Source: an uncultured virus (IMG/VR IMGVR_UViG_3300027969_000053) (Duplodnaviria; Heunggongvirae; Uroviricota; Caudoviricetes). Taken from it: a stretch of DNA of 64,000 nucleotides. The stretch lies in IMG/VR virus record IMGVR_UViG_3300027969_000053. One strand, 5' to 3'. Position numbers and translations under genes: made by a program. Under the pieces are notes generated by a model. The model had not been told where the DNA came from. It ran no database searches and saw only the letters and a list, made by a program, of their open reading frames with translations. Positions 6,426-62,318 of the stretch are shown piece after piece; the stretch's first letter is position 1; the number at the start of each line of letters is the position of its first letter.

Positions 6426-6956
6426 ATGAACATTTTTGCCAATGATCAGTGTCCGGTGCTTTCTGCCGTGGCACTTCCTGACAAATACTCAGTGAAAATG
6501 CCCTTGGAGACCTGTCAGATGATTTCTGTCATCTACTCCAAGTGGTACTATGATTGGGGAACCATTCCAAAGAAAGACGGCACCCCCTATAATACAGAGA
6601 AGGGTGCCTTCCGTAATCATCCTTGTACTCAATGGGCAGCAAAATCCCACGAGAACCTTGCTTGGTTGATTCGGCACGGATTTGCCCTTTGTAATGAGTA
6701 TCGGCATCGTTATGAAAAAGACCACGCTTGTATGAAAGGTCTTGAAGTTGCGGAGAATATCTTTGCTACTAAAAGTGGAAAAGAAATCGGTATCTACAAA
6801 AATGTGGTAGAATTCACAAGGGCAATGTCGGATGAGTTCAAGTGCGATACTTCAATTGATACATTTGAGGCATATAGAAGATATGTTGCCTCCAAACCCT
6901 GGGTGAAGGATAATTACCTTCGCATCCCCGAAAGACGACCGCAATGGGTGGTATAA
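6426..6956 (+). CDS. pyrimidine-dimer DNA glycosylase (DenV)-family protein
   Basis: MNIF..., DK..VKMPLETCQM, NHPCTQWA, EYRHRY motifs; visibly higher GC than its neighbours. Confidence 0.7.
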   Translation: MNIFANDQCPVLSAVALPDKYSVKMPLETCQMISVIYSKWYYDWGTIPKKDGTPYNTEKGAFRNHPCTQWAAKSHENLAWLIRHGFALCNEYRHRYEKDHACMKGLEVAENIFATKSGKEIGIYKNVVEFTRAMSDEFKCDTSIDTFEAYRRYVASKPWVKDNYLRIPERRPQWVV

Positions 6957-7048
6957 ATAATGATGCCTGGTTTGTTCGCACTTTTCGGGTGGGGGAGTAG
7001 AAATGCTCTCCCTTATAAATAGTATTGCGAACAAACAACAGAGCAGAA
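6952..7048 (+). ncRNA. candidate small structured RNA cassette with two late promoters, copy 1
   Basis: TATAAATA(6952-6959); GCCTG/CGGGT stem with loop GTTTGTTCGCA; GGGAG/CTCCC hairpin; TATAAATA(7014-7021); TGCGAACAAAC complementary to the loop. Confidence 0.6.
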
Positions 7049-7618
7049 ATGTATTACTACACTTACGCATATTTGCGTGAAGATAAAACTCCTTATTATA
7101 TTGGTAAGGGTAAAGGTAATAGAATTAACTCTAAACAAAGAAGTATAAAACCCCCCAAAGATAAAAGTAGAATAATATACCTCAAACAAAATCTAACTGA
7201 AGCAGAGGCATTTAGACACGAAATCTATATGATTGCTGTGTTCGGTAGAAAGGATTTAGGAACTGGTATTCTTCATAATAGAACTGATGGTGGTGATGGT
7301 GCTTCTGGTACTGTAAGAAGTGTGGAAGTTAAGAAAAAGCAAAGTGAAAGGATGAGTGGAGAAAACAATCCTCACTATGGTAAAAGAGGTAAAGAGGGAC
7401 CTCATTATGGTAAAAAACATACGCAAGAAACAAAAGATAGAATAAGAAAATCTCTACAAGGTAATGTAATTTCCAAAGAAACTAGAATAAAGATTAGTGA
7501 AAAAAATAAACTAAATCAACTTGGAGAAAACAATTCCTTTTATGGGAGAAAACATACAGAAGAAACTAAAAGAAAAATGAGTGAGGCAGCAAAACGAAGA
7601 AAAGAAAAAGGTTCTTGA
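7049..7618 (+). CDS. GIY-YIG homing endonuclease with NUMOD3 repeats
   Basis: YTYAY...YYIGKG.GNR; GENNPHYGK and GRKHTEETKRKMSE repeats; ATG at 7049 downstream of the late promoter. Confidence 0.88.
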   Translation: MYYYTYAYLREDKTPYYIGKGKGNRINSKQRSIKPPKDKSRIIYLKQNLTEAEAFRHEIYMIAVFGRKDLGTGILHNRTDGGDGASGTVRSVEVKKKQSERMSGENNPHYGKRGKEGPHYGKKHTQETKDRIRKSLQGNVISKETRIKISEKNKLNQLGENNSFYGRKHTEETKRKMSEAAKRRKEKGS

Positions 7619-7670
7619 CTTTTGTTGATTGTCGTGCTAAACTAAACACTAAACCTTACTGGATTTAATT

Positions 7671-8108
7671 ATGACTACGATTAAAACTTATGCGATTAAT
7701 GAACTCACCAGAATTGGAATGTATAATTCTGGGGAAGAAATGAATGATGAAATGTGTGAACATATTCTCAAAATAGTGGATGTATTTGACGAAGAGGGGC
7801 ACTCTGGATTTTCGGCAGAATATGCGATTGGTATTCTTCAAAAACTTCTAAGATGGGAACCACTTTCGCCCTTGACTGGTGATGATGATGAGTGGAAGAA
7901 TTTGGAGAATGAAGGATTTCAAAATAAGAGATGCTCTCGTGTCTTCAAGGATGAAAAAGGTGGACAAGCATATGATATTCGTGGCAAAGTCTTCGTAAAT
8001 CCTGATGGTGCTGCTTTTACTAGTCGTGACAGTCGGGTGTATATTGACTTTCCGTATGTTCCTAAAACTGAATATGTAAATGTAGAACACGAAACTACTG
8101 AAGACTGA
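7671..8108 (+). CDS. hypothetical protein
   Basis: 145-aa ORF downstream of a TTGACT-17-TAAACT promoter-like site; GHSGFSA and PLSPLTG motifs. Confidence 0.7.
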   Translation: MTTIKTYAINELTRIGMYNSGEEMNDEMCEHILKIVDVFDEEGHSGFSAEYAIGILQKLLRWEPLSPLTGDDDEWKNLENEGFQNKRCSRVFKDEKGGQAYDIRGKVFVNPDGAAFTSRDSRVYIDFPYVPKTEYVNVEHETTED

Positions 8109-18215: not shown

Positions 18216-19010
18216 ACTGGTGTCGGAAAATCTTTGTTTATGTGTCATTTTGCTGCATCAGTTCTTCTTCAAGGAAAAAATGTTTTATACATTACACTTG
18301 AAATGGCAGAGGAAAAGATTGCTGAAAGAATTGACGCAAATCTTCTAAACATTAATATTAAAGACATTGAAACATTACCTAAAATGATGTTTGACTCAAA
18401 AATAAATAGTATTGCGAAGAAGACTCAAGGAACTTTAATTATTAAAGAGTATCCAACTGCTTCCGCACACGCAGGACATTTCAGAGCACTTCTAAATGAA
18501 CTCTCTCTTAAGAAATCATTCAGACCTGATATTATTTTTATTGACTACCTTAATATTTGTGGTTCCTCAAGATATAAGAGTAATTTTTCAGTTAATTCTT
18601 ATTCATATATTAAAGCAATTGCAGAAGAACTTCGTGGTCTTGCAGTTGAAGCAAATGTTCCAATTGTTTCCGCTACTCAAACTACTCGTAGTGGTTTTTC
18701 TAGCTCTGATCCTGATCTTACTGATACTTCTGAATCCTTTGGTCTCCCTGCTACTGCTGATCTTATGTTTGCCCTTATTAGCACAGAAGAGTTGGAACAA
18801 CTCGGGCAGATTATGGTAAAACAATTGAAGAATAGATACAATGACCCAACAATGAATAAAAGATTTGTAGTTGGTATTGACCGTGCGAAGATGAGATTAT
18901 TTGATGTAGAGCAAAGTGCTCAAACCGATATACTTGACTCTGGACAAGAAGAAGAGTATACTTATGAAGAAGATAAACCCAAAAAACAATTCTCTGGATT
19001 TAAATTTTAA
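17838..19010 (+). CDS. gp41: split-intein C part fused to the gp41 helicase C-terminal fragment
   Basis: MWIEKE...YYTNGVSSHN, then TGVGKSLFMCH, ITLEM, IFIDYL, SATQTTR. Confidence 0.93.
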   Translation: MWIEKETSIAEIKTLLDNGYEVEVDSPDGYVPVNFFINKGMYEEYELHLYDTTTKVKCNESHLFETNQGWISAKSLEYSNSYWEFITKDGLRIGKVIKTNNQIPIVDINVNHPNHRYYTNGVSSHNTGVGKSLFMCHFAASVLLQGKNVLYITLEMAEEKIAERIDANLLNINIKDIETLPKMMFDSKINSIAKKTQGTLIIKEYPTASAHAGHFRALLNELSLKKSFRPDIIFIDYLNICGSSRYKSNFSVNSYSYIKAIAEELRGLAVEANVPIVSATQTTRSGFSSSDPDLTDTSESFGLPATADLMFALISTEELEQLGQIMVKQLKNRYNDPTMNKRFVVGIDRAKMRLFDVEQSAQTDILDSGQEEEYTYEEDKPKKQFSGFKF

Positions 19011-21172: not shown

Positions 21173-22366
21173 ATGAAGACTTTTGCCCAGTTTATAATAG
21201 AAGCACGAACTACTGCCGCATCCACGGAAGCAAAGAATCGTGGTCTTAAAAGTGATGCCCATGGAGATTATTACGATAATCAAGGAAATCTTGTAGCAAA
21301 AACTGTGGGAGGAAAGTTACAATATTTTGGTCAAGGTGGTGCCGGGGCACAACAGCAGCAACAAACACAACAAAGGACTTCACAAACATCATCACAACAA
21401 ACTGCGCCACAGCAGACTCAAACTGCACCACAGGAAGAGCAACAAGAACCAAATGGTGCAGTAATTGTATTGGGAAGATTCAATCCGCCATCCAAAAATC
21501 ACGAAGCACTTTTGAGATCGGGATATTCGCAAGCAAATAGAAGAAAATTTGAATATCGCATATACCCAAGTCGTATTCAGGATGATGCTACAAATCCATT
21601 GAATGTAAGACTTAAAGTTTCTTATATGCAATCAATGTATCCACAATATGCAGAATATATTGTGGATAGTGATAAGATGAAAACAATATTTGATGTTCTT
21701 GAATCTTTATATGGTGATGGATATACTGATGTAGTTATCGTTGTTGGTCAAGATAGACTTGGAGAATTTCAAAGTTTAGCACACAAAGGCGAAGGAGAAG
21801 CATATCAATTCAATACCATTCAGGTAATTTCTGCTGGTGTGAAAGATCCAGATAGTGATGTTGGAGGTGCTGGTTCTTCTGCGATGATGAGAACCGCTGC
21901 TGCTATGGGAGATTTTGAAAAGTTTTCAAGTGGCCTTCCCGCTACTATGAAGGTTAGTGAAAGAAAAGAAATGTTTAATACTATAAAAAGGTCTATGAAG
22001 GTAAATGAAAATACTGAATTATGGAAAATAGCGCCTGAACTTGATTATAATGGAATGAGATGGAACTATAAGAAAAATGGATTATTTGAGGTGGGAGCAT
22101 TCGTTGAAAATTTAAATACTGGATTAGTTGGAAGAATACTTCGCAAGGGGTCAAATCATCTTATCTGTGTGACAGAAGATGGAGTAATGTTTAAGAGTTG
22201 GTTAAGAGATTTGAGAGAAGTTCAAGAGATTGGAACTTGTGATTATAGAGCACACGCGCAATCAATGACGCCCGGACAACCAGTAGTTCCTTATACGGAT
22301 ACTGAAATTAAAATAACAGTACCAAAGAAAAAGATAAATACTAAAAGAAATAGTGGGTCTAAGTAA
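21173..22366 (+). CDS. cytidylyltransferase-like protein with capsid-targeting-like N-terminus
   Basis: GRFNPPSKNHEAL, VVGQDR, SSAMMR; begins MKTFAQFIIEA. Confidence 0.75.
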   Translation: MKTFAQFIIEARTTAASTEAKNRGLKSDAHGDYYDNQGNLVAKTVGGKLQYFGQGGAGAQQQQQTQQRTSQTSSQQTAPQQTQTAPQEEQQEPNGAVIVLGRFNPPSKNHEALLRSGYSQANRRKFEYRIYPSRIQDDATNPLNVRLKVSYMQSMYPQYAEYIVDSDKMKTIFDVLESLYGDGYTDVVIVVGQDRLGEFQSLAHKGEGEAYQFNTIQVISAGVKDPDSDVGGAGSSAMMRTAAAMGDFEKFSSGLPATMKVSERKEMFNTIKRSMKVNENTELWKIAPELDYNGMRWNYKKNGLFEVGAFVENLNTGLVGRILRKGSNHLICVTEDGVMFKSWLRDLREVQEIGTCDYRAHAQSMTPGQPVVPYTDTEIKITVPKKKINTKRNSGSK

Positions 22367-22370
22367 AAAA

Positions 22371-24293
22371 ATGAAGACTTGGAAAGAAATTATTACCGAA
22401 GCGAAAACAAAAAGAGAGCAACAACTTGCAGCTGCGACTGCACAACTTGCTGATAAAGACCCATCAATGCCAAAATCTCTTCAAAGTAAAGAAAAGAAAG
22501 CAAAAGACAAAAGAGACTATCAATCGGCTCATACCCAACTGTTGAGAGATATTCACCAGTTCAAAAAAGAAAAATATGAAGCACAAAAACAAGCACAAAT
22601 TGATAAATTAAAGAAACAGGGAGTAGAGAAACACGCAGCAGCAGCAAAAGCATCTATTTCTGGCATTAAAACCCAACAGATTAGTAGTCAAGATAAAGAA
22701 GGAACTGCATATTCCAAAGCAATGGGAAATGTAGGTTCTGCTGCTGCTGGCGTTGCTGGTGCAGCAGTTAATCTTACAAAGTTGACTTTTGCAAAAAGAA
22801 AAGCAAATGCAGCAGCAAATGCAGCAAAAAAAGCACAACCAGAAAAGAAAGAACCAGGGGCACCTGGAAGACCACCACAAGCAAATAAAACTGCACCAGC
22901 AACTCCTGGGACTGGATCTTCAAGTTCAGCACCTACGCCAAAAGCAACTGCACCAGCAACTAGACCCGCTGGACCCAAAGGACCTTCTGGACCATCGGGA
23001 CCAGCAGCAATGAGACCAAAAGGACCTTCTGGACCAAAAGGACCATCGGGACCAGCAGCAATGAGACCAAAAGGACCGGGATCTAATGTATCAACCGGAC
23101 AAAAACCAACTGCGCCAGCATCAACAACACCAACAGTTCCAGCGAAACGTGTTGTGCATAAAGCACCAACCGCATTTGGATTTCCTGTTGGTCGTTTAGC
23201 TACAGCAACTGCAGTTGCTGGTAAAACTTTATCCGGAAAATTTCATACTATTGGACGAGGAGGAGAAAATCCACTCAGCAAAAGAATTGATAAAGCCAAT
23301 GCGGTAAAAAGACCATATAAAGGAAATACGTCAAATATTAGAGAAAAATATTCCAATTGGAGAGATGAATTGCTCACCGAACAGGGATTGATTATTGAAA
23401 TTGATGATTTTGGATTAAAAGATAACAAAAAAGAAAAAGGAGAGAAAAAGATTATTGACGTGATGAAAGGAAAGAATAAGATTGATATTAATCCAAATGA
23501 AACTTCGGTTAAAGAAGAGGTGTCTGGTGTGGATACTCAACAAAATCCAAATCAAGCAAATGATTTAGAAAAAAAACAAAAAGCAATACAAAGACAAATC
23601 TTATTGAAAAAAATACAGTCATTATCTGTTCCTGGTCCAACTGATATTACTGCATCTTATGACCCAAGAATTGAAGAGGCATATAAAGACGAAGAAGGCG
23701 GAATGTCCCGCAATGAACTTTCTACTGTGGAAAGAGCAATCAAATCTCTTCGTAAAAAAATAAAGTCTAATAATCAACAGTTGCCTGCTTGGGTCCAATC
23801 TAAAATCACAAAAGCAGCAGACTATATTGATACTGCTGCAGATTATATGTCAGGTGAAACTGAACAAGTTAAAGAAGCATATGATGATGACAATGAAACT
23901 TTCCGTCAGCATTCTCGTGAGAGATTTACTGCTGGTCCTGCTGATGATGATGGAGCACAAAGAACTTCTAGAATTCTTCAAAGAATGAAAGAAATGAATA
24001 AAGATGCTGAACCAAAGAAAAAGAAAAAGAAAAAAAAAAATAAACTAAAAGAAGAAGGACCCGTATTATCTGTTGGTAGAGGTGAAAAACTTTCAGTAGA
24101 AAAGGGTGGTGGACTTACTCAAAAAGGCAGAGATAAATATAATCGTGCTACTGGTTCGCATCTTCAAGCACCAGTAACTGGTGATGTAAAACCAGGAAGT
24201 AAAGCAGCAAAACGTAGAAAAAACTTCTGTTCTCGTAGTAGAAGTTGGCATGGTGAAAGAGGATTAGCAGCAAGAAGACGTTGGAAGTGTTAG
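22371..24293 (+). CDS. large low-complexity putative internal virion protein
   Basis: Begins MKTWKEIITEA after ATAAATA(22334-22340); Pro/Gly/Ala tract; PAWVQSKITKAADYID; ends RRRWKC. Confidence 0.7.
   Translation: MKTWKEIITEAKTKREQQLAAATAQLADKDPSMPKSLQSKEKKAKDKRDYQSAHTQLLRDIHQFKKEKYEAQKQAQIDKLKKQGVEKHAAAAKASISGIKTQQISSQDKEGTAYSKAMGNVGSAAAGVAGAAVNLTKLTFAKRKANAAANAAKKAQPEKKEPGAPGRPPQANKTAPATPGTGSSSSAPTPKATAPATRPAGPKGPSGPSGPAAMRPKGPSGPKGPSGPAAMRPKGPGSNVSTGQKPTAPASTTPTVPAKRVVHKAPTAFGFPVGRLATATAVAGKTLSGKFHTIGRGGENPLSKRIDKANAVKRPYKGNTSNIREKYSNWRDELLTEQGLIIEIDDFGLKDNKKEKGEKKIIDVMKGKNKIDINPNETSVKEEVSGVDTQQNPNQANDLEKKQKAIQRQILLKKIQSLSVPGPTDITASYDPRIEEAYKDEEGGMSRNELSTVERAIKSLRKKIKSNNQQLPAWVQSKITKAADYIDTAADYMSGETEQVKEAYDDDNETFRQHSRERFTAGPADDDGAQRTSRILQRMKEMNKDAEPKKKKKKKKNKLKEEGPVLSVGRGEKLSVEKGGGLTQKGRDKYNRATGSHLQAPVTGDVKPGSKAAKRRKNFCSRSRSWHGERGLAARRRWKC
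22970..23078 (+). repeat. in-frame imperfect tandem repeat encoding GPKGPSGP/AAMRPK
   Basis: GGACCATCGGGACCAGCAGCAATGAGACCAAAAGGACC occurs twice about 51 bp apart, with shorter GGACC units. Confidence 0.85.
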
Positions 24294-24294
24294 T

Positions 24295-25311
24295 ATGTCT
24301 CAAGATTTGAATGATTTTTTTAAATTATTAGCAGAAGATAAGAAACAAAAAAAAGAAGAATTTGATAATCTTGTAGGAGATTTGGGATTAAATTCTCTTT
24401 TTGGTGAATTTGCTGCAATTAAAAAAGAACAAAAAGAAAAAAAGATAGAAGAAAAGAAAAAAACAGAATCTATTATTGGTGAACTTACTTTAGATTCTGT
24501 TTTTAAAGAAGTTGTTAATTTAAAAAAAGAAACAAAAAAGAAAAAAGTACAAGAACAAAAAACAATCCAAGCATTTGAAACTTGGTTATATTCTGATTCT
24601 GTATTGGAACAAGATGAAATAATCAATGAAGTTATTGAAGAATCTTTGGAAGAAGTTCTTGAGGTTCTTGAAGATAACAAAGAAGAATTGGAAGAATTTA
24701 ATAAAATTGAAGAACCAACATTAATTGAAAAATCATTAGGTCTTCTTGCCGAACCAAGTGATGTCAAGCAACAAAATGACCCATTAACTCCATTAGATCA
24801 AAAGTTCGCAACACTTGATGATTTACAAAAACATTACAGTACTTTCCTTTCTCGTATTCAACAACAACTTTCCACATTAGGTGGAGGGGGAGAAACCAGA
24901 TTAAGATACTTGGATGATATTGTAGGTATTGCAACGAATTCTGGTGCTTATGATGGAAAGTATTTGCAATGGAACTCTACTACTAATAAAGCAGAATTTA
25001 CTGACCCAAGTGATTCAGAATCTACAACAATAGTTTCAATTACTGGAATTACCACTTACTATCAGGCAACCGATAATGATGATTATATTGGTGTCAATGC
25101 TAGTGTTCCTGTAACAATAGTTCTTCCAACATCTCCAAATACTGGAAAAAAAATCATCGTCAAAGATGAGGGAAATAATATATCTACATATAGTATTAGA
25201 GTTCAATCAGGTATTGGTAAAAGTGTAGAAAACGATACTTCTGTGATTATGTCTATCAATCATCAATCACTAACATATTTTTTTAATGGAAACAATTGGT
25301 TTATTATCTAA
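24295..25311 (+). CDS. putative structural protein (coiled coil plus beta-rich C-terminal domain)
   Basis: LSTLGGGGE..LRYLDD; YIGVNASVPVTIVLP...IIVKDE. Confidence 0.6.
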   Translation: MSQDLNDFFKLLAEDKKQKKEEFDNLVGDLGLNSLFGEFAAIKKEQKEKKIEEKKKTESIIGELTLDSVFKEVVNLKKETKKKKVQEQKTIQAFETWLYSDSVLEQDEIINEVIEESLEEVLEVLEDNKEELEEFNKIEEPTLIEKSLGLLAEPSDVKQQNDPLTPLDQKFATLDDLQKHYSTFLSRIQQQLSTLGGGGETRLRYLDDIVGIATNSGAYDGKYLQWNSTTNKAEFTDPSDSESTTIVSITGITTYYQATDNDDYIGVNASVPVTIVLPTSPNTGKKIIVKDEGNNISTYSIRVQSGIGKSVENDTSVIMSINHQSLTYFFNGNNWFII

Positions 25312-25413
25312 CTAAATATCAATACCTGTGTGGTTCGCATCTATCAGGTGGAAAGGGTGCTTTCGGGCACCTTTTCTTGTATAAATAGTATTGCGAACCA
25401 TAACAGAATAAAA
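25312..25413 (+). ncRNA. candidate small structured RNA cassette with two late promoters, copy 2
   Basis: CTAAATA(25312-25318); ACCTG/CAGGT stem with loop TGTGGTTCGCA; GGTGC-TTTCGG-GCACC hairpin plus T-run; TATAAATA(25380-25387); TGCGAACCATA. Confidence 0.6.
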
Positions 25414-25980
25414 ATGATTTATTACACTTACGCATATTTGCGGGTAGATAGAACACCTTATTACATAGGAAAAGGAAAAGGTAATAGGGCATATAGAAGA
25501 AGATATAAAGGTGAAGTAAGAGCACCAAAGGATAAGTCAAGAATAATTTTCCTAAAACAAAACTTAACCGAAGAAGAAGCATTTAAGCACGAAATCTATA
25601 TGATTGCCGTGTTCGGCAGGATAGATTTAGGAACTGGTATTCTTCACAATAGAACTGATGGTGGTGAAGGTGCTTCTGGTGCTATAAGAAGTGAAGAAAC
25701 AAAATTAAAAATGAGAACTCCTAAAAAAACAACAATAAATATGAAAAAACCAAAAAGTGAGGAGCATAAGAAAAAAATAGGATTGCGTAGAAAAGGAAAA
25801 AAACACACGGAAGAAGCAAGAAAAAAAATGAGTGATGCTCAGGTTAGGAGAATTATCACTGATGAATTTAGAGAAAAAATTCAAAAAAGTAGAATGGGAA
25901 GAAAACATTCCGAAGAAACAAAACAAAAAATGAGAGAAAAAGCATTATTAAGAGAAGAACTAAAACGGAACAATAAATAA
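25414..25980 (+). CDS. GIY-YIG homing endonuclease with NUMOD3 repeats, paralog of 7049..7618
   Basis: [52 protein letters not shown] and GRKHSEE. Confidence 0.88.
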
Positions 25981-25998
25981 GGTATCAATATAATTGTT

Positions 25999-40783: not shown

Positions 40784-41212
40784 ATGTTTAATTTTAATTT
40801 TGGAAATAAAAAACCAGATATTAAACAATATGCAATCATAGGAATTATCTTAAGTTCTGTGATTGCAACTCTTACACAATGTACTGGAATTCAAGAAACA
40901 TCCTTATGGGATGTATTTGATGAGGTGCAACGTAAGTTTTTCCCTCAAACAATCTTGAATGATTTCATCATCAAAGATCCCGAAAAATTGGATCGTAGGG
41001 TGAAGAGAGATGTTGATTTGGCAATTGCTGAGTATGAAAGATTGACAGGAGATGATGGAAAGATTAGGATGCCTAAACCACGATATTCAGAGAAACCACC
41101 AGACGGGTCTTATGTCCAATCAGTTTTGGGTGGTGAAATGAGATTGTGTGCTCCTTGGGTAAACGATTGCCCCTTTACAGACCAGAATAATGCGGATGTA
41201 ACTCAGCGGTAG
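40784..41212 (+). CDS. hypothetical membrane-anchored protein
   Basis: ATAAATA upstream; N-terminal hydrophobic helix; stop lies inside tRNA-Gly. Confidence 0.65.
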   Translation: MFNFNFGNKKPDIKQYAIIGIILSSVIATLTQCTGIQETSLWDVFDEVQRKFFPQTILNDFIIKDPEKLDRRVKRDVDLAIAEYERLTGDDGKIRMPKPRYSEKPPDGSYVQSVLGGEMRLCAPWVNDCPFTDQNNADVTQR

Positions 41213-41263
41213 AGTTCCTGCTTGCCAAGTAGATTGTCGTCGGTTCGAATCCGATCATCCGCT
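41192..41263 (+). tRNA. tRNA-Gly(GCC)
   Basis: GCGGATG/CATCCGC acceptor, loop TTGCCAA, GGTTCGAATCC T-arm, discriminator T, CCA not encoded. Confidence 0.9.
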
Positions 41264-43770: not shown

Positions 43771-43842
43771 GGTTCTGTCGCCTATTGGTTAAGGCCGACA
43801 CCTTATAAGTGTCTGAACGGAGTTCAATTCTCTGCAGAACCA
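43771..43842 (+). tRNA. tRNA-Ile(UAU)
   Basis: GGTTCTG/CAGAACC acceptor; GCCT/AGGC D-stem; GACAC-CTTATAA-GTGTC anticodon arm; CGGAG-TTCAATT-CTCTG T-arm. Confidence 0.85.
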
Positions 43843-62164: not shown

Positions 62165-62199
62165 AGTCAGGAAACGAAGACAAATCTTTACGTTTCTTA

Positions 62200-62318
62200 A
62201 CCTTCTGTAACCGAGATCATCAGAAGTAAAGCGTCTCTCATATCCGTACTGGAGGGTGGTACGGAAATAACTGTAACATTCAGTTCCCCCTGAATTCTTA
62301 TTTACCCTTTAACGAAAA
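62200..62318 (+). ncRNA. structured psbA leader, probably the PhotoRC-II-type motif
   Basis: CTTCTG/CAGAAG, GAGA/TCTC, TCCGTAC-TGGAGGGTG-GTACGGA, ATTCAG/CTGAAT; family match is from recall, not a search. Confidence 0.6.

Follow-up and report, generated by a model that had tools for sequence, protein, structure and literature searches.

Two genes for free-standing homing endonucleases, found in a stretch of 64,000 nucleotides (nt) from an uncultured virus of the Caudoviricetes (IMG/VR record IMGVR_UViG_3300027969_000053; this whole stretch is called the window below), are each preceded by a module of about 105 bases in which an upstream segment is complementary to the leader of the nuclease messenger RNA (mRNA). 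The pairing between the two segments is under selection. A T4-type late promoter is nested between the two complementary arms, and the whole cassette is probably a portable expression lock that travels with the free-standing homing endonuclease genes of T4-like cyanophages. The window itself is DNA of a freshwater T4-like cyanophage, with nearly all its genes on the plus strand. Its closest cultured relatives at the DNA level are Synechococcus myoviruses such as S-SRM01, and the public sequencing runs that contain the stretch carry freshwater or lake metagenome labels.

Both cassettes lie on the plus strand and are built alike. They open with a box resembling a late promoter (P1); a 5' hairpin comes next, then a GC hairpin and its U-rich tail, and a second box (P2) leads into the complementary leader and the ATG of the nuclease gene. 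Copy 2 extends from 25311 to 25416. Its P1 box, ACTAAATA, occupies 25311..25318 (with CTAAATA at 25312-25318), and the start predicted for P1, at 25324, coincides with the base of the 5' hairpin (25324..25349), which is made of ACCTG (25324-25328), a 16-nt loop TGTGGTTCGCATCTAT (25329-25344) and CAGGT (25345-25349). The 5' arm, CCTGTGTGGTTCGCA (25325..25339), is complementary to the leader and forms with positions 25392-25406 a duplex of -21.5 kcal/mol. The terminator-like GC hairpin and its U-rich tail (25351..25379) include GGTGC-TTTCGG-GCACC at 25356-25371, followed by TTTTCTTG, and fold with 11 pairs and -14.6 kcal/mol. P2, the consensus T4-type late promoter TATAAATA, is found at 25380..25387 with a predicted start at G25393. 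The 3' arm, TGCGAACCATAACAG (25392..25406), is the first part of the nuclease mRNA leader and starts with the 11-base loop target TGCGAACCATA (25392-25402). The Seg-like homing endonuclease gene runs from 25414 to 25980 and encodes 188 amino acids, with a divergent GIY-YIG-like N-terminus and NUMOD3 repeats. In the same way, copy 1 (6952-7051) is made of P1 TATAAATA (6952-6959), a 5' hairpin (6965-6990, with GCCTG at 6965-6969, a 16-nt loop at 6970-6985 and CGGGT at 6986-6990), a GC hairpin (6991-7012), P2 TATAAATA (7014-7021) and a 3' arm (7026-7045) that includes TGCGAACAAAC at 7026-7036, and it precedes a Seg-like homing endonuclease gene of 189 amino acids (7049..7618, ATG at 7049). All the elements that a preliminary description of the window had listed for copy 2 are thus in place, base for base, and copy 1 repeats their order.

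The pairing of the loop with its target, put at 11 pairs in that description, is complete in both copies (11 of 11, with one G.U in copy 2), and in three of these pairs both partners have changed from one copy to the other while pairing is kept. The small stem also changes between the copies as had been described, two pairs passing from G.U or U.G to A-U or U-A, and the loop stays at 16 nt. However, full-length folds of both copies indicate that the pairing exceeds these 11 bases: it comprises 14 to 17 pairs, beginning with CUG at the foot of the 5' hairpin and stopping a few bases short of the AUG, and the extended helix encloses the GC hairpin and the TATAAATA box. The two cassette regions are unusually stable (fold z = -5.0 and -4.3; none of 200 shuffles as stable). 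They are also singular in the window. When all 107 TAAATA sites on both strands were scanned for the full pattern, in which a pair of hairpins with a U-rich tail leads on to another TAAATA and then to a complementary leader, only two were followed by it, and these are exactly the two copies. A covariance model (R1) built from 53 cassettes likewise has exactly two matches in the window, the same ones.

Similar cassettes are widespread upstream of related nucleases. A protein-guided scan of viral contigs found 420 nuclease relatives, and 80 loci were retained. In 64 of 79 upstream regions (77 loci and the two window copies), a pair of TAAATA boxes is separated by 55 to 90 nt, which gives 54 unique cassettes; unless stated otherwise, the counts below refer to these 54. 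The other 15 regions are without a standard cassette: L059 and L067 show a single degenerate box, L015 and L016 follow a variant layout, and the remaining 11 have no cassette at all. A scan independent of the genes, using the pattern of the junction between terminator tail and P2, returned 125 stretches, and 68 of the 77 that were analysed are cassettes. The remaining nine comprise eight seemingly unrelated stretches, probably chance matches, and one decayed copy without P1. P1 is present both in 64 of the 79 upstream regions and in 68 of the 77 junction loci. About 139 distinct cassettes were collected. In the complete 240-kb genome of the cultured phage S-SRM01, model R1 finds six cassettes, and an independent scan for the architecture (TAAATA, two hairpins and a U-rich tail) finds the same six places and nothing else. 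A blastn search of one cassette against cultured phages returned S-SRM01 only. Some variant cassettes (L060 at 489-594, L087, L015 and L016) have no separate 5' hairpin; in these, 13 to 14 nt complementary to the leader lie in the apical loop of a long hairpin, and a U-run comes directly behind this hairpin. One of them, L087, belongs to S-SRM01 and precedes the nuclease at record position 77672.

Evidence for selection comes from the arms themselves. Cognate arm duplexes have a mean energy of -22.6 kcal/mol (standard deviation 1.6, range -19.7 to -26.5) with 14 to 24 pairs in all unique cassettes, whereas non-cognate combinations reach a mean of -10.8 kcal/mol (standard deviation 4.1), and this holds across 25 distinct arm classes. 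An alignment of 101 cassettes agrees: pairing holds in 91.5% of its cells, versus 71.0% in shuffles, none of 500 shuffles reaching the observed value, and partners slid along the alignment reach at most 49.1%; this alignment was fitted to the model structure and so favours it, a weakness that the alignment-free duplex test does not have. In the same alignment, both partners change in 28 of the 29 pairs, among them every one of the 12 in the GC hairpin, and helix 1, the basal part where AGAG(C/U)A pairs with UGCCU, is 93.4% paired. The changes seen between the two window copies are thus compensatory in a broader alignment as well, which is the check by which the preliminary description proposed to judge its reading; its claim of selection on the pairing of the upstream segment with the leader is supported by duplex energies and covariation alike.

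The small stem of the ACCTG/CAGGT type, on which selection had also been proposed, covaries in turn among the 139 unique cassettes of the larger collection, its pairs alternating, for instance, between C-G (70) and U-A (59) and between G-C (59), U-A (32) and A-U (20), although these counts were taken from energy folds and lean towards the structure tested.

The composition of the helix also bears on the level at which selection acts. The arms form an inverted repeat in DNA, and the mobile cassette has become joined by recombination to different nuclease genes, so that a palindrome bound by protein, a cruciform or a site of recombination serving insertion could be considered. However, the 914 arm pairs comprise 876 Watson-Crick pairs and 38 G.U, and the 1x1 mismatches are GA (four) and UU (two), with no A.C; G.U without A.C points to a constraint on the plus-strand RNA and not on DNA. 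Moreover, the arm sequences vary freely among the 25 classes, whereas the site of a protein would be conserved. A role of the repeat as DNA is accordingly very improbable.

The position of the helix relative to the promoter and to the start codon suggests what the RNA pairing is for. T4-like late promoters have the form TATAAATA at -13 to -6 relative to the start site, which lies 6 nt past the box, their first T being poorly conserved, and CTAAATA is a late-promoter form in Aeh1 (PMC1524935); NATAAATA is a form found in cyanomyoviruses (PMC2984593). In the window, motifs of the form NATAAATA or NCTAAATA stand 16 to 30 nt upstream of many starts of open reading frames (ORFs) and match these published late-promoter forms of T4-like phages. 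P2 is TATAAATA in 52 of the 54 cassettes and is nested between the arms. In 29 of 54 the helix begins 4 nt after P2, and in 49 of 54 a gap of 1 to 6 nt separates its end from the AUG. The conserved, purine-rich AGAG(C/U)A, the only Shine-Dalgarno-like feature of the leader, pairs with UGCCU at the base of the helix, and a long-range helix around the GC hairpin was obtained in 53 of 53 full-length folds.

These features are those expected of a mask over a ribosome-binding site. In the T4 genes for I-TevI, for I-TevII and for I-TevIII, in segB and in mobE of Aeh1, a stable structure hides the ribosome site on transcripts from upstream promoters, and a nested late promoter gives a transcript too short to form that structure (PMC2988022). 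As in these T4-type masks, the genes following the cassettes belong to the homing endonucleases, the helix covers the ribosome-binding site, and the late promoter is placed, judging from its predicted start, such that the 5' half of the helix is dropped. In the proposed lock, transcripts coming from upstream would mostly be stopped at the GC hairpin and its U-rich tail. In transcripts that read through, the 5' arm would pair with the leader in a helix of 14 to 24 pairs, the ribosome site would be hidden and translation repressed. The late mRNA initiated at P2 would start at the first or second base of the 3' arm, without the 5' arm, and would thus be translatable. Since many of the nucleases lie among small early-type genes or before sigma-70-like promoters, a guard against early read-through makes sense. 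In addition, P1, the 5' hairpin and the terminator may together set the 5' arm free as a separate RNA of two hairpins and about 55 nt.

A bulged helix of 14 to 24 pairs between two genes, with two adjacent hairpins at the 3' end of the upstream transcript, could alternatively be an element of processing or stability, i.e., a site of the RNase III type that splits off the nuclease message or a structure protecting the 3' end of the upstream mRNA, and cleavage of the RNase E type has been reported for segB and mobE transcripts (PMC2988022). However, the helix invariably extends to the last few bases ahead of the AUG and includes AGAG, which a processing site need not do, and P2 is always nested between the arms (consensus in 52 of 54), the signature of mask logic. 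This explanation is thus unlikely, and the expression lock remains the preferred one.

Several points weigh against the lock as it is drawn here, besides the leanings of the alignment and of the fold counts mentioned above. Promoter use, termination and repression are all inferred, and the AGAG stretch is a putative ribosome site for picocyanobacteria. The terminator role fits imperfectly in the window: the GC hairpin of copy 2 is followed by UUUUCUUG, and its U-run partly pairs with an upstream A-run, whereas that of copy 1 (nine pairs, -13.8 kcal/mol) is followed only by UUAUAAAU, a poor U tract. Neither of the two GC hairpins was called by a simple consensus terminator scan. Furthermore, a mask acting in cis alone leaves a conserved, covarying 5' hairpin and the retention of P1 unexplained.

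P1 itself is conserved. The box is N[A/C]TAAATA in 53 of 54 cassettes, and its second position is A in 37, C in 16 and G in one, but never T. It stands 4 nt upstream of the 5' arm in 37 of 54. P1 and P2 have in common an extended context, TAAATA-nTAnT-GC (T at -4, A at -3, T at -1, G or A at +1 and C at +2), which is unpaired and lies outside the helix. When the segment running from P1 through the terminator is folded alone, exactly two hairpins form in 136 of the 139 cassettes; in 135 of 139, the beginning of the first one lies no more than 2 nt from the conserved TGC that contains the predicted start. The 5' hairpin and the long-range helix are competing structures; in the former, the arm's constant part is hidden in the stem and its variable part exposed in the loop. 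Pairing of the P1 spacer with the bases before the AUG was considered; it is seen by eye in some cassettes but is not systematic and does not explain the conserved spacer.

These features raise the possibility that the 5' arm acts in trans. The RNA of about 55 nt running from P1 to the terminator would seed, by its variable loop, on the 5' end of the cognate P2 mRNA and spread over the ribosome site, a mode of action compatible with the mask in cis, by which the output of nuclease would be kept low and independent of template copy number. P1 as the first base of the insert, its conserved box without T at the second position, the unpaired context that it shares with P2, the predicted start at the base of a covarying hairpin, and the division of the arm between a local stem (the constant UGCCU) and a loop (the variable part) are all consistent with such an RNA. 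In two of the variants, L060 and L087, it is the terminator hairpin that carries the complementary stretch, in its apical loop. The P2 mRNA leader is mostly open (mean unpaired probability 0.65). On the other hand, the RNA is a predicted species, and the terminator that would define its end escapes the simple scan in both window copies. All six two-hairpin modules of S-SRM01 adjoin their own target, with no orphan module in the whole genome of this phage. Within the free RNA, the arm offers no more than 3 to 9 consecutive unpaired nt (mean 5.1). Paralogous cassettes of the same genome are hardly distinguishable from random combinations (-9.9 versus -10.8 kcal/mol; 22 comparisons in nine genomes, which have little power). 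Lastly, the barrier to refolding in cis is modest (8.7 to 11.5 kcal/mol), so that action in cis needs no help. A trans-acting RNA is therefore held here as a tentative proposal, a little short of an even chance, and is ranked below the lock in cis, which is the probable core function of the cassette.

The preliminary description had left it undecided whether the two copies cross-regulate. The predicted cross duplexes (-13.2 kcal/mol for arm 1 on leader 2 and -16.1 for arm 2 on leader 1) are weaker than the cognate ones (-22.3 and -21.5 kcal/mol), the non-cognate background being -10.8 kcal/mol (standard deviation 4.1). Because a UUCGCA/UGCGAA core is common to both copies, weak cross-talk of arm 2 on leader 1 is conceivable. 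Cross-regulation would thus be partial at most. It is conceivable, at the same tentative level as the short RNA itself, that the cassettes represent an unobserved class of same-strand late phage regulatory RNA, in which at least 25 arm classes on one scaffold would form mutually orthogonal pairs of small RNA and leader.

Concerning the genes that the cassettes accompany, the proteins of copies 1 and 2 (189 and 188 amino acids) are paralogues sharing 54% identity. Both carry NUMOD3 repeats (Pfam E 8.9e-10 and 2.8e-20). They match the 'homing endonuclease' family phrog_314 (E 1e-17), and their relatives are annotated as Seg-like homing endonucleases. The GIY-YIG label given in the preliminary description is weakly supported by sequence. 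PF01541 stays above E 0.01 on both window proteins and hence does not match at the cut-off; among 32 relatives, 27 match LEM-3_GIY-YIG (best E 6.7e-4) and three PF01541 (best E 8.8e-4), all below the curated cut-offs. The best match to a solved structure is a 'GIY-YIG domain-containing protein' with E of 0.013 to 0.025. The residues invariant in the alignment are Y4, Y6, Y16, Y17, G19, R25, E60 and N79. Homologues of the nucleases are labelled 'translation initiation factor 2' in GenBank (S-SRM01 MW015081.1 62515-63273; phages B3, B23 and Sf-CH5), probably a mis-annotation due to the lysine- and glutamate-rich NUMOD3 repeats.

The cassette is not tied to a single gene family and precedes several families of nucleases. 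Among 65 downstream ORFs of at least 60 amino acids, 57 fall in one broad GIY-YIG-like cluster, four encode classical GIY-YIG proteins (Pfam PF01541, E 1.1e-6), two have H-H-I motifs that look HNH-like by eye (Pfam gives NUMOD3 for one and nothing for the other), and two encode other proteins. In S-SRM01, furthermore, the gene that follows one cassette bears an HNH endonuclease annotation. Nucleases of a different subfamily (L130 and L147) are also preceded by the arm sequence of copy 2, which indicates that cassettes are exchanged between genes.

The mobility of the cassette together with its gene, also proposed at the outset, is supported at both sites. For copy 2, a contig from a freshwater RNA library (run X24) joins position 25286 to 25998, the 25 letters between them being a divergent counterpart of 25287-25311, where the upstream gene ends. 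Of the runs compared with this locus (X23, X24 and X1, all in the form of contigs), the two from RNA libraries leave the cassette uncovered, which is neutral as to a small RNA. In this allele, the stop codon of the upstream tail-fibre-like gene is followed by one base and then by the ATG of the next gene. The junction delimits an insert of 686 nt (25312..25997, plus strand) that starts exactly with CTAAATA and comprises the cassette, the nuclease gene and a third late-promoter-like box. The insert of copy 1 likewise begins at its box when compared with phage S-B05, in which the homologous gene ends with ...TGGGTATGA and has no P1 box.

The third box, AATAAATA (25972..25979, plus strand), overlaps the stop codon of the copy 2 nuclease and stands 19 nt before the ATG of the next gene (25999); this box could set late transcription going again downstream of the insert. 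As a general feature of the right end, such a promoter was rejected, TAAATA being found near the nuclease stop in only seven of 52 relatives. The 8-mer TATCAATA occurs just inside both ends of the copy 2 insert (25317-25324 and 25983-25990) and could be a boundary repeat or due to chance, the probability of one such repeat in an AT-rich stretch of this length being roughly 5%. In six other loci (L007, L026, L027, L036, L042 and L057), a motif GGACACTTGA..AACTGGCACAAG..(hairpin)..TATAAT is found just after the nuclease stops. It looks like a shared early promoter with a stem-loop, resembling the PeSL cassettes of T4-like phages, at the right end of inserts.

The core logic of the mask is known, and a simpler form has been published for the same phage group. 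The masks of T-even phages, which also include those of the T4 late genes soc and e, have in common with the cassette a hidden ribosome site and an inner TATAAATA. The cassette differs from them, as they are described in PMC2988022, in that its arms lie 55 to 90 nt from each other with an entire GC hairpin and U-rich tail between them, in that its 5' arm has a covarying hairpin of its own, and in that a second late-promoter-like box precedes the arm by 4 nt. In cyanophage-like 'fractured gene' loci from metagenomes, Dassa et al. (2009) described hairpins with TATAAATA and mutually complementary motifs before free-standing endonucleases; these hairpins precede GIY-YIG and Vsr-like endonucleases and were read as a mask (PMC2677866). 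However, the example printed there for gp41-1 is a single hairpin of about 50 nt, with no enclosed terminator hairpin and no second box (PMC2677866). The enclosed terminator, the covarying 5' hairpin and P1 as the first base of the insert thus look like an undescribed elaboration.

Other regulatory cassettes of phages are more distant. The PeSL cassettes (PMC2839356, PMC4122927) are likewise repeated modules of promoter and terminator tied to modular gene exchange, but they have an early promoter and are not known to include a leader-complementary arm, whereas the present cassettes have late-type boxes and are tied to nuclease genes. An assignment to the PeSLs was rejected since both boxes are of the late TAAATA type; no sigma-70-like site was called within either window cassette. 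The small RNA StxS, produced from PR'-tR' of Stx phages, also arises from a late promoter followed immediately by a terminator and acts in trans, but it belongs to a lambdoid antitermination system and targets host genes, whereas the target of the cassette is the adjacent gene (PMC7547250). Neither the elaborated form nor a small RNA before homing endonucleases was found in the literature searched, including the text available from a 2025 review of phage small RNAs, where the only nuclease-linked cyanophage RNA is the antisense CfrI of S-PM2 (PMC12197685).

Searches of Rfam at gathering scores returned, for the window, two tRNA genes (41192-41263 and 43771-43842) and a PhotoRC-II RNA (62188-62278, 60.4 bits), with no match to the cassettes. 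On the cassettes and four related loci, Rfam gave only sub-threshold chance matches (STnc370, Chlorobi-1 and Fluoride). The nearest analogue in principle of the short RNA is the c4 RNA of bacteriophages P1 and P7, a same-strand regulator located upstream of its target, whose loops pair with the region of the ribosome site. In c4, matched changes carry differences in specificity; the RNA is processed from an operon transcript and controls an antirepressor in a temperate phage. RNA-OUT of IS10, which acts on RNA-IN, is another analogue for action in trans. As for c4, the cassettes show complementarity to a downstream ribosome-site region with matched changes between relatives. However, the c4 family (Rfam RF01695) has no match on either cassette at E up to 10 and none in the window at threshold.

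Some other features of the window concern the surroundings of the two copies or related sequences. The 19-mer TATAAATAGTATTGCGAAC has three matches in the window at up to three mismatches, where 0.04 would be expected by chance. The third is a match at 17 of 19 positions to the string formed by P2 and the leader (AATAAATAGTATTGCGAAG, 18401-18419), located inside the coding region of a DnaB/gp41-like helicase. Endonucleases are known to insert into gp41 in cyanophage-like loci (PMC2677866); the match might represent a late promoter within the gene, a remnant or a point of recombination. Upstream of copy 1, the gene 6426-6956 encodes a denV-like pyrimidine dimer DNA glycosylase (Pfam Pyr_excise, E 2.8e-11), the stop codon of which falls inside the P1 box of the cassette. 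Just downstream of copy 1, the gene 7671-8108 encodes a protein matching Pfam Tad3, an inhibitor of Type I Thoeris (E 1.2e-41), and is preceded by a sigma-70-like promoter, TTGACT-17-TAAACT (7615-7643), that overlaps the end of the nuclease gene. Repeats with a period of 9 bp (22951-23061) lie within the ORF 22353-24293 and encode a proline- and glycine-rich stretch (GPxGPSGP) of a 646-amino-acid protein.

Homing endonucleases are selfish genes that need enough expression to spread, but not so much that it harms the phage. By combining its own stop, late promoter and mask, one movable RNA module would enable the nuclease to land in early or late regions without disturbance. As a strongly covarying structure with no Rfam match, the cassette is a candidate new RNA family. 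If the short RNA exists, it would bring the antisense principle of c4 into lytic T4-like phages and would represent their first family of trans-acting small RNAs. Each selfish nuclease would then carry its own dose-limiting leash, and the cassettes would offer natural orthogonal RNA-RNA pairs for synthetic biology.

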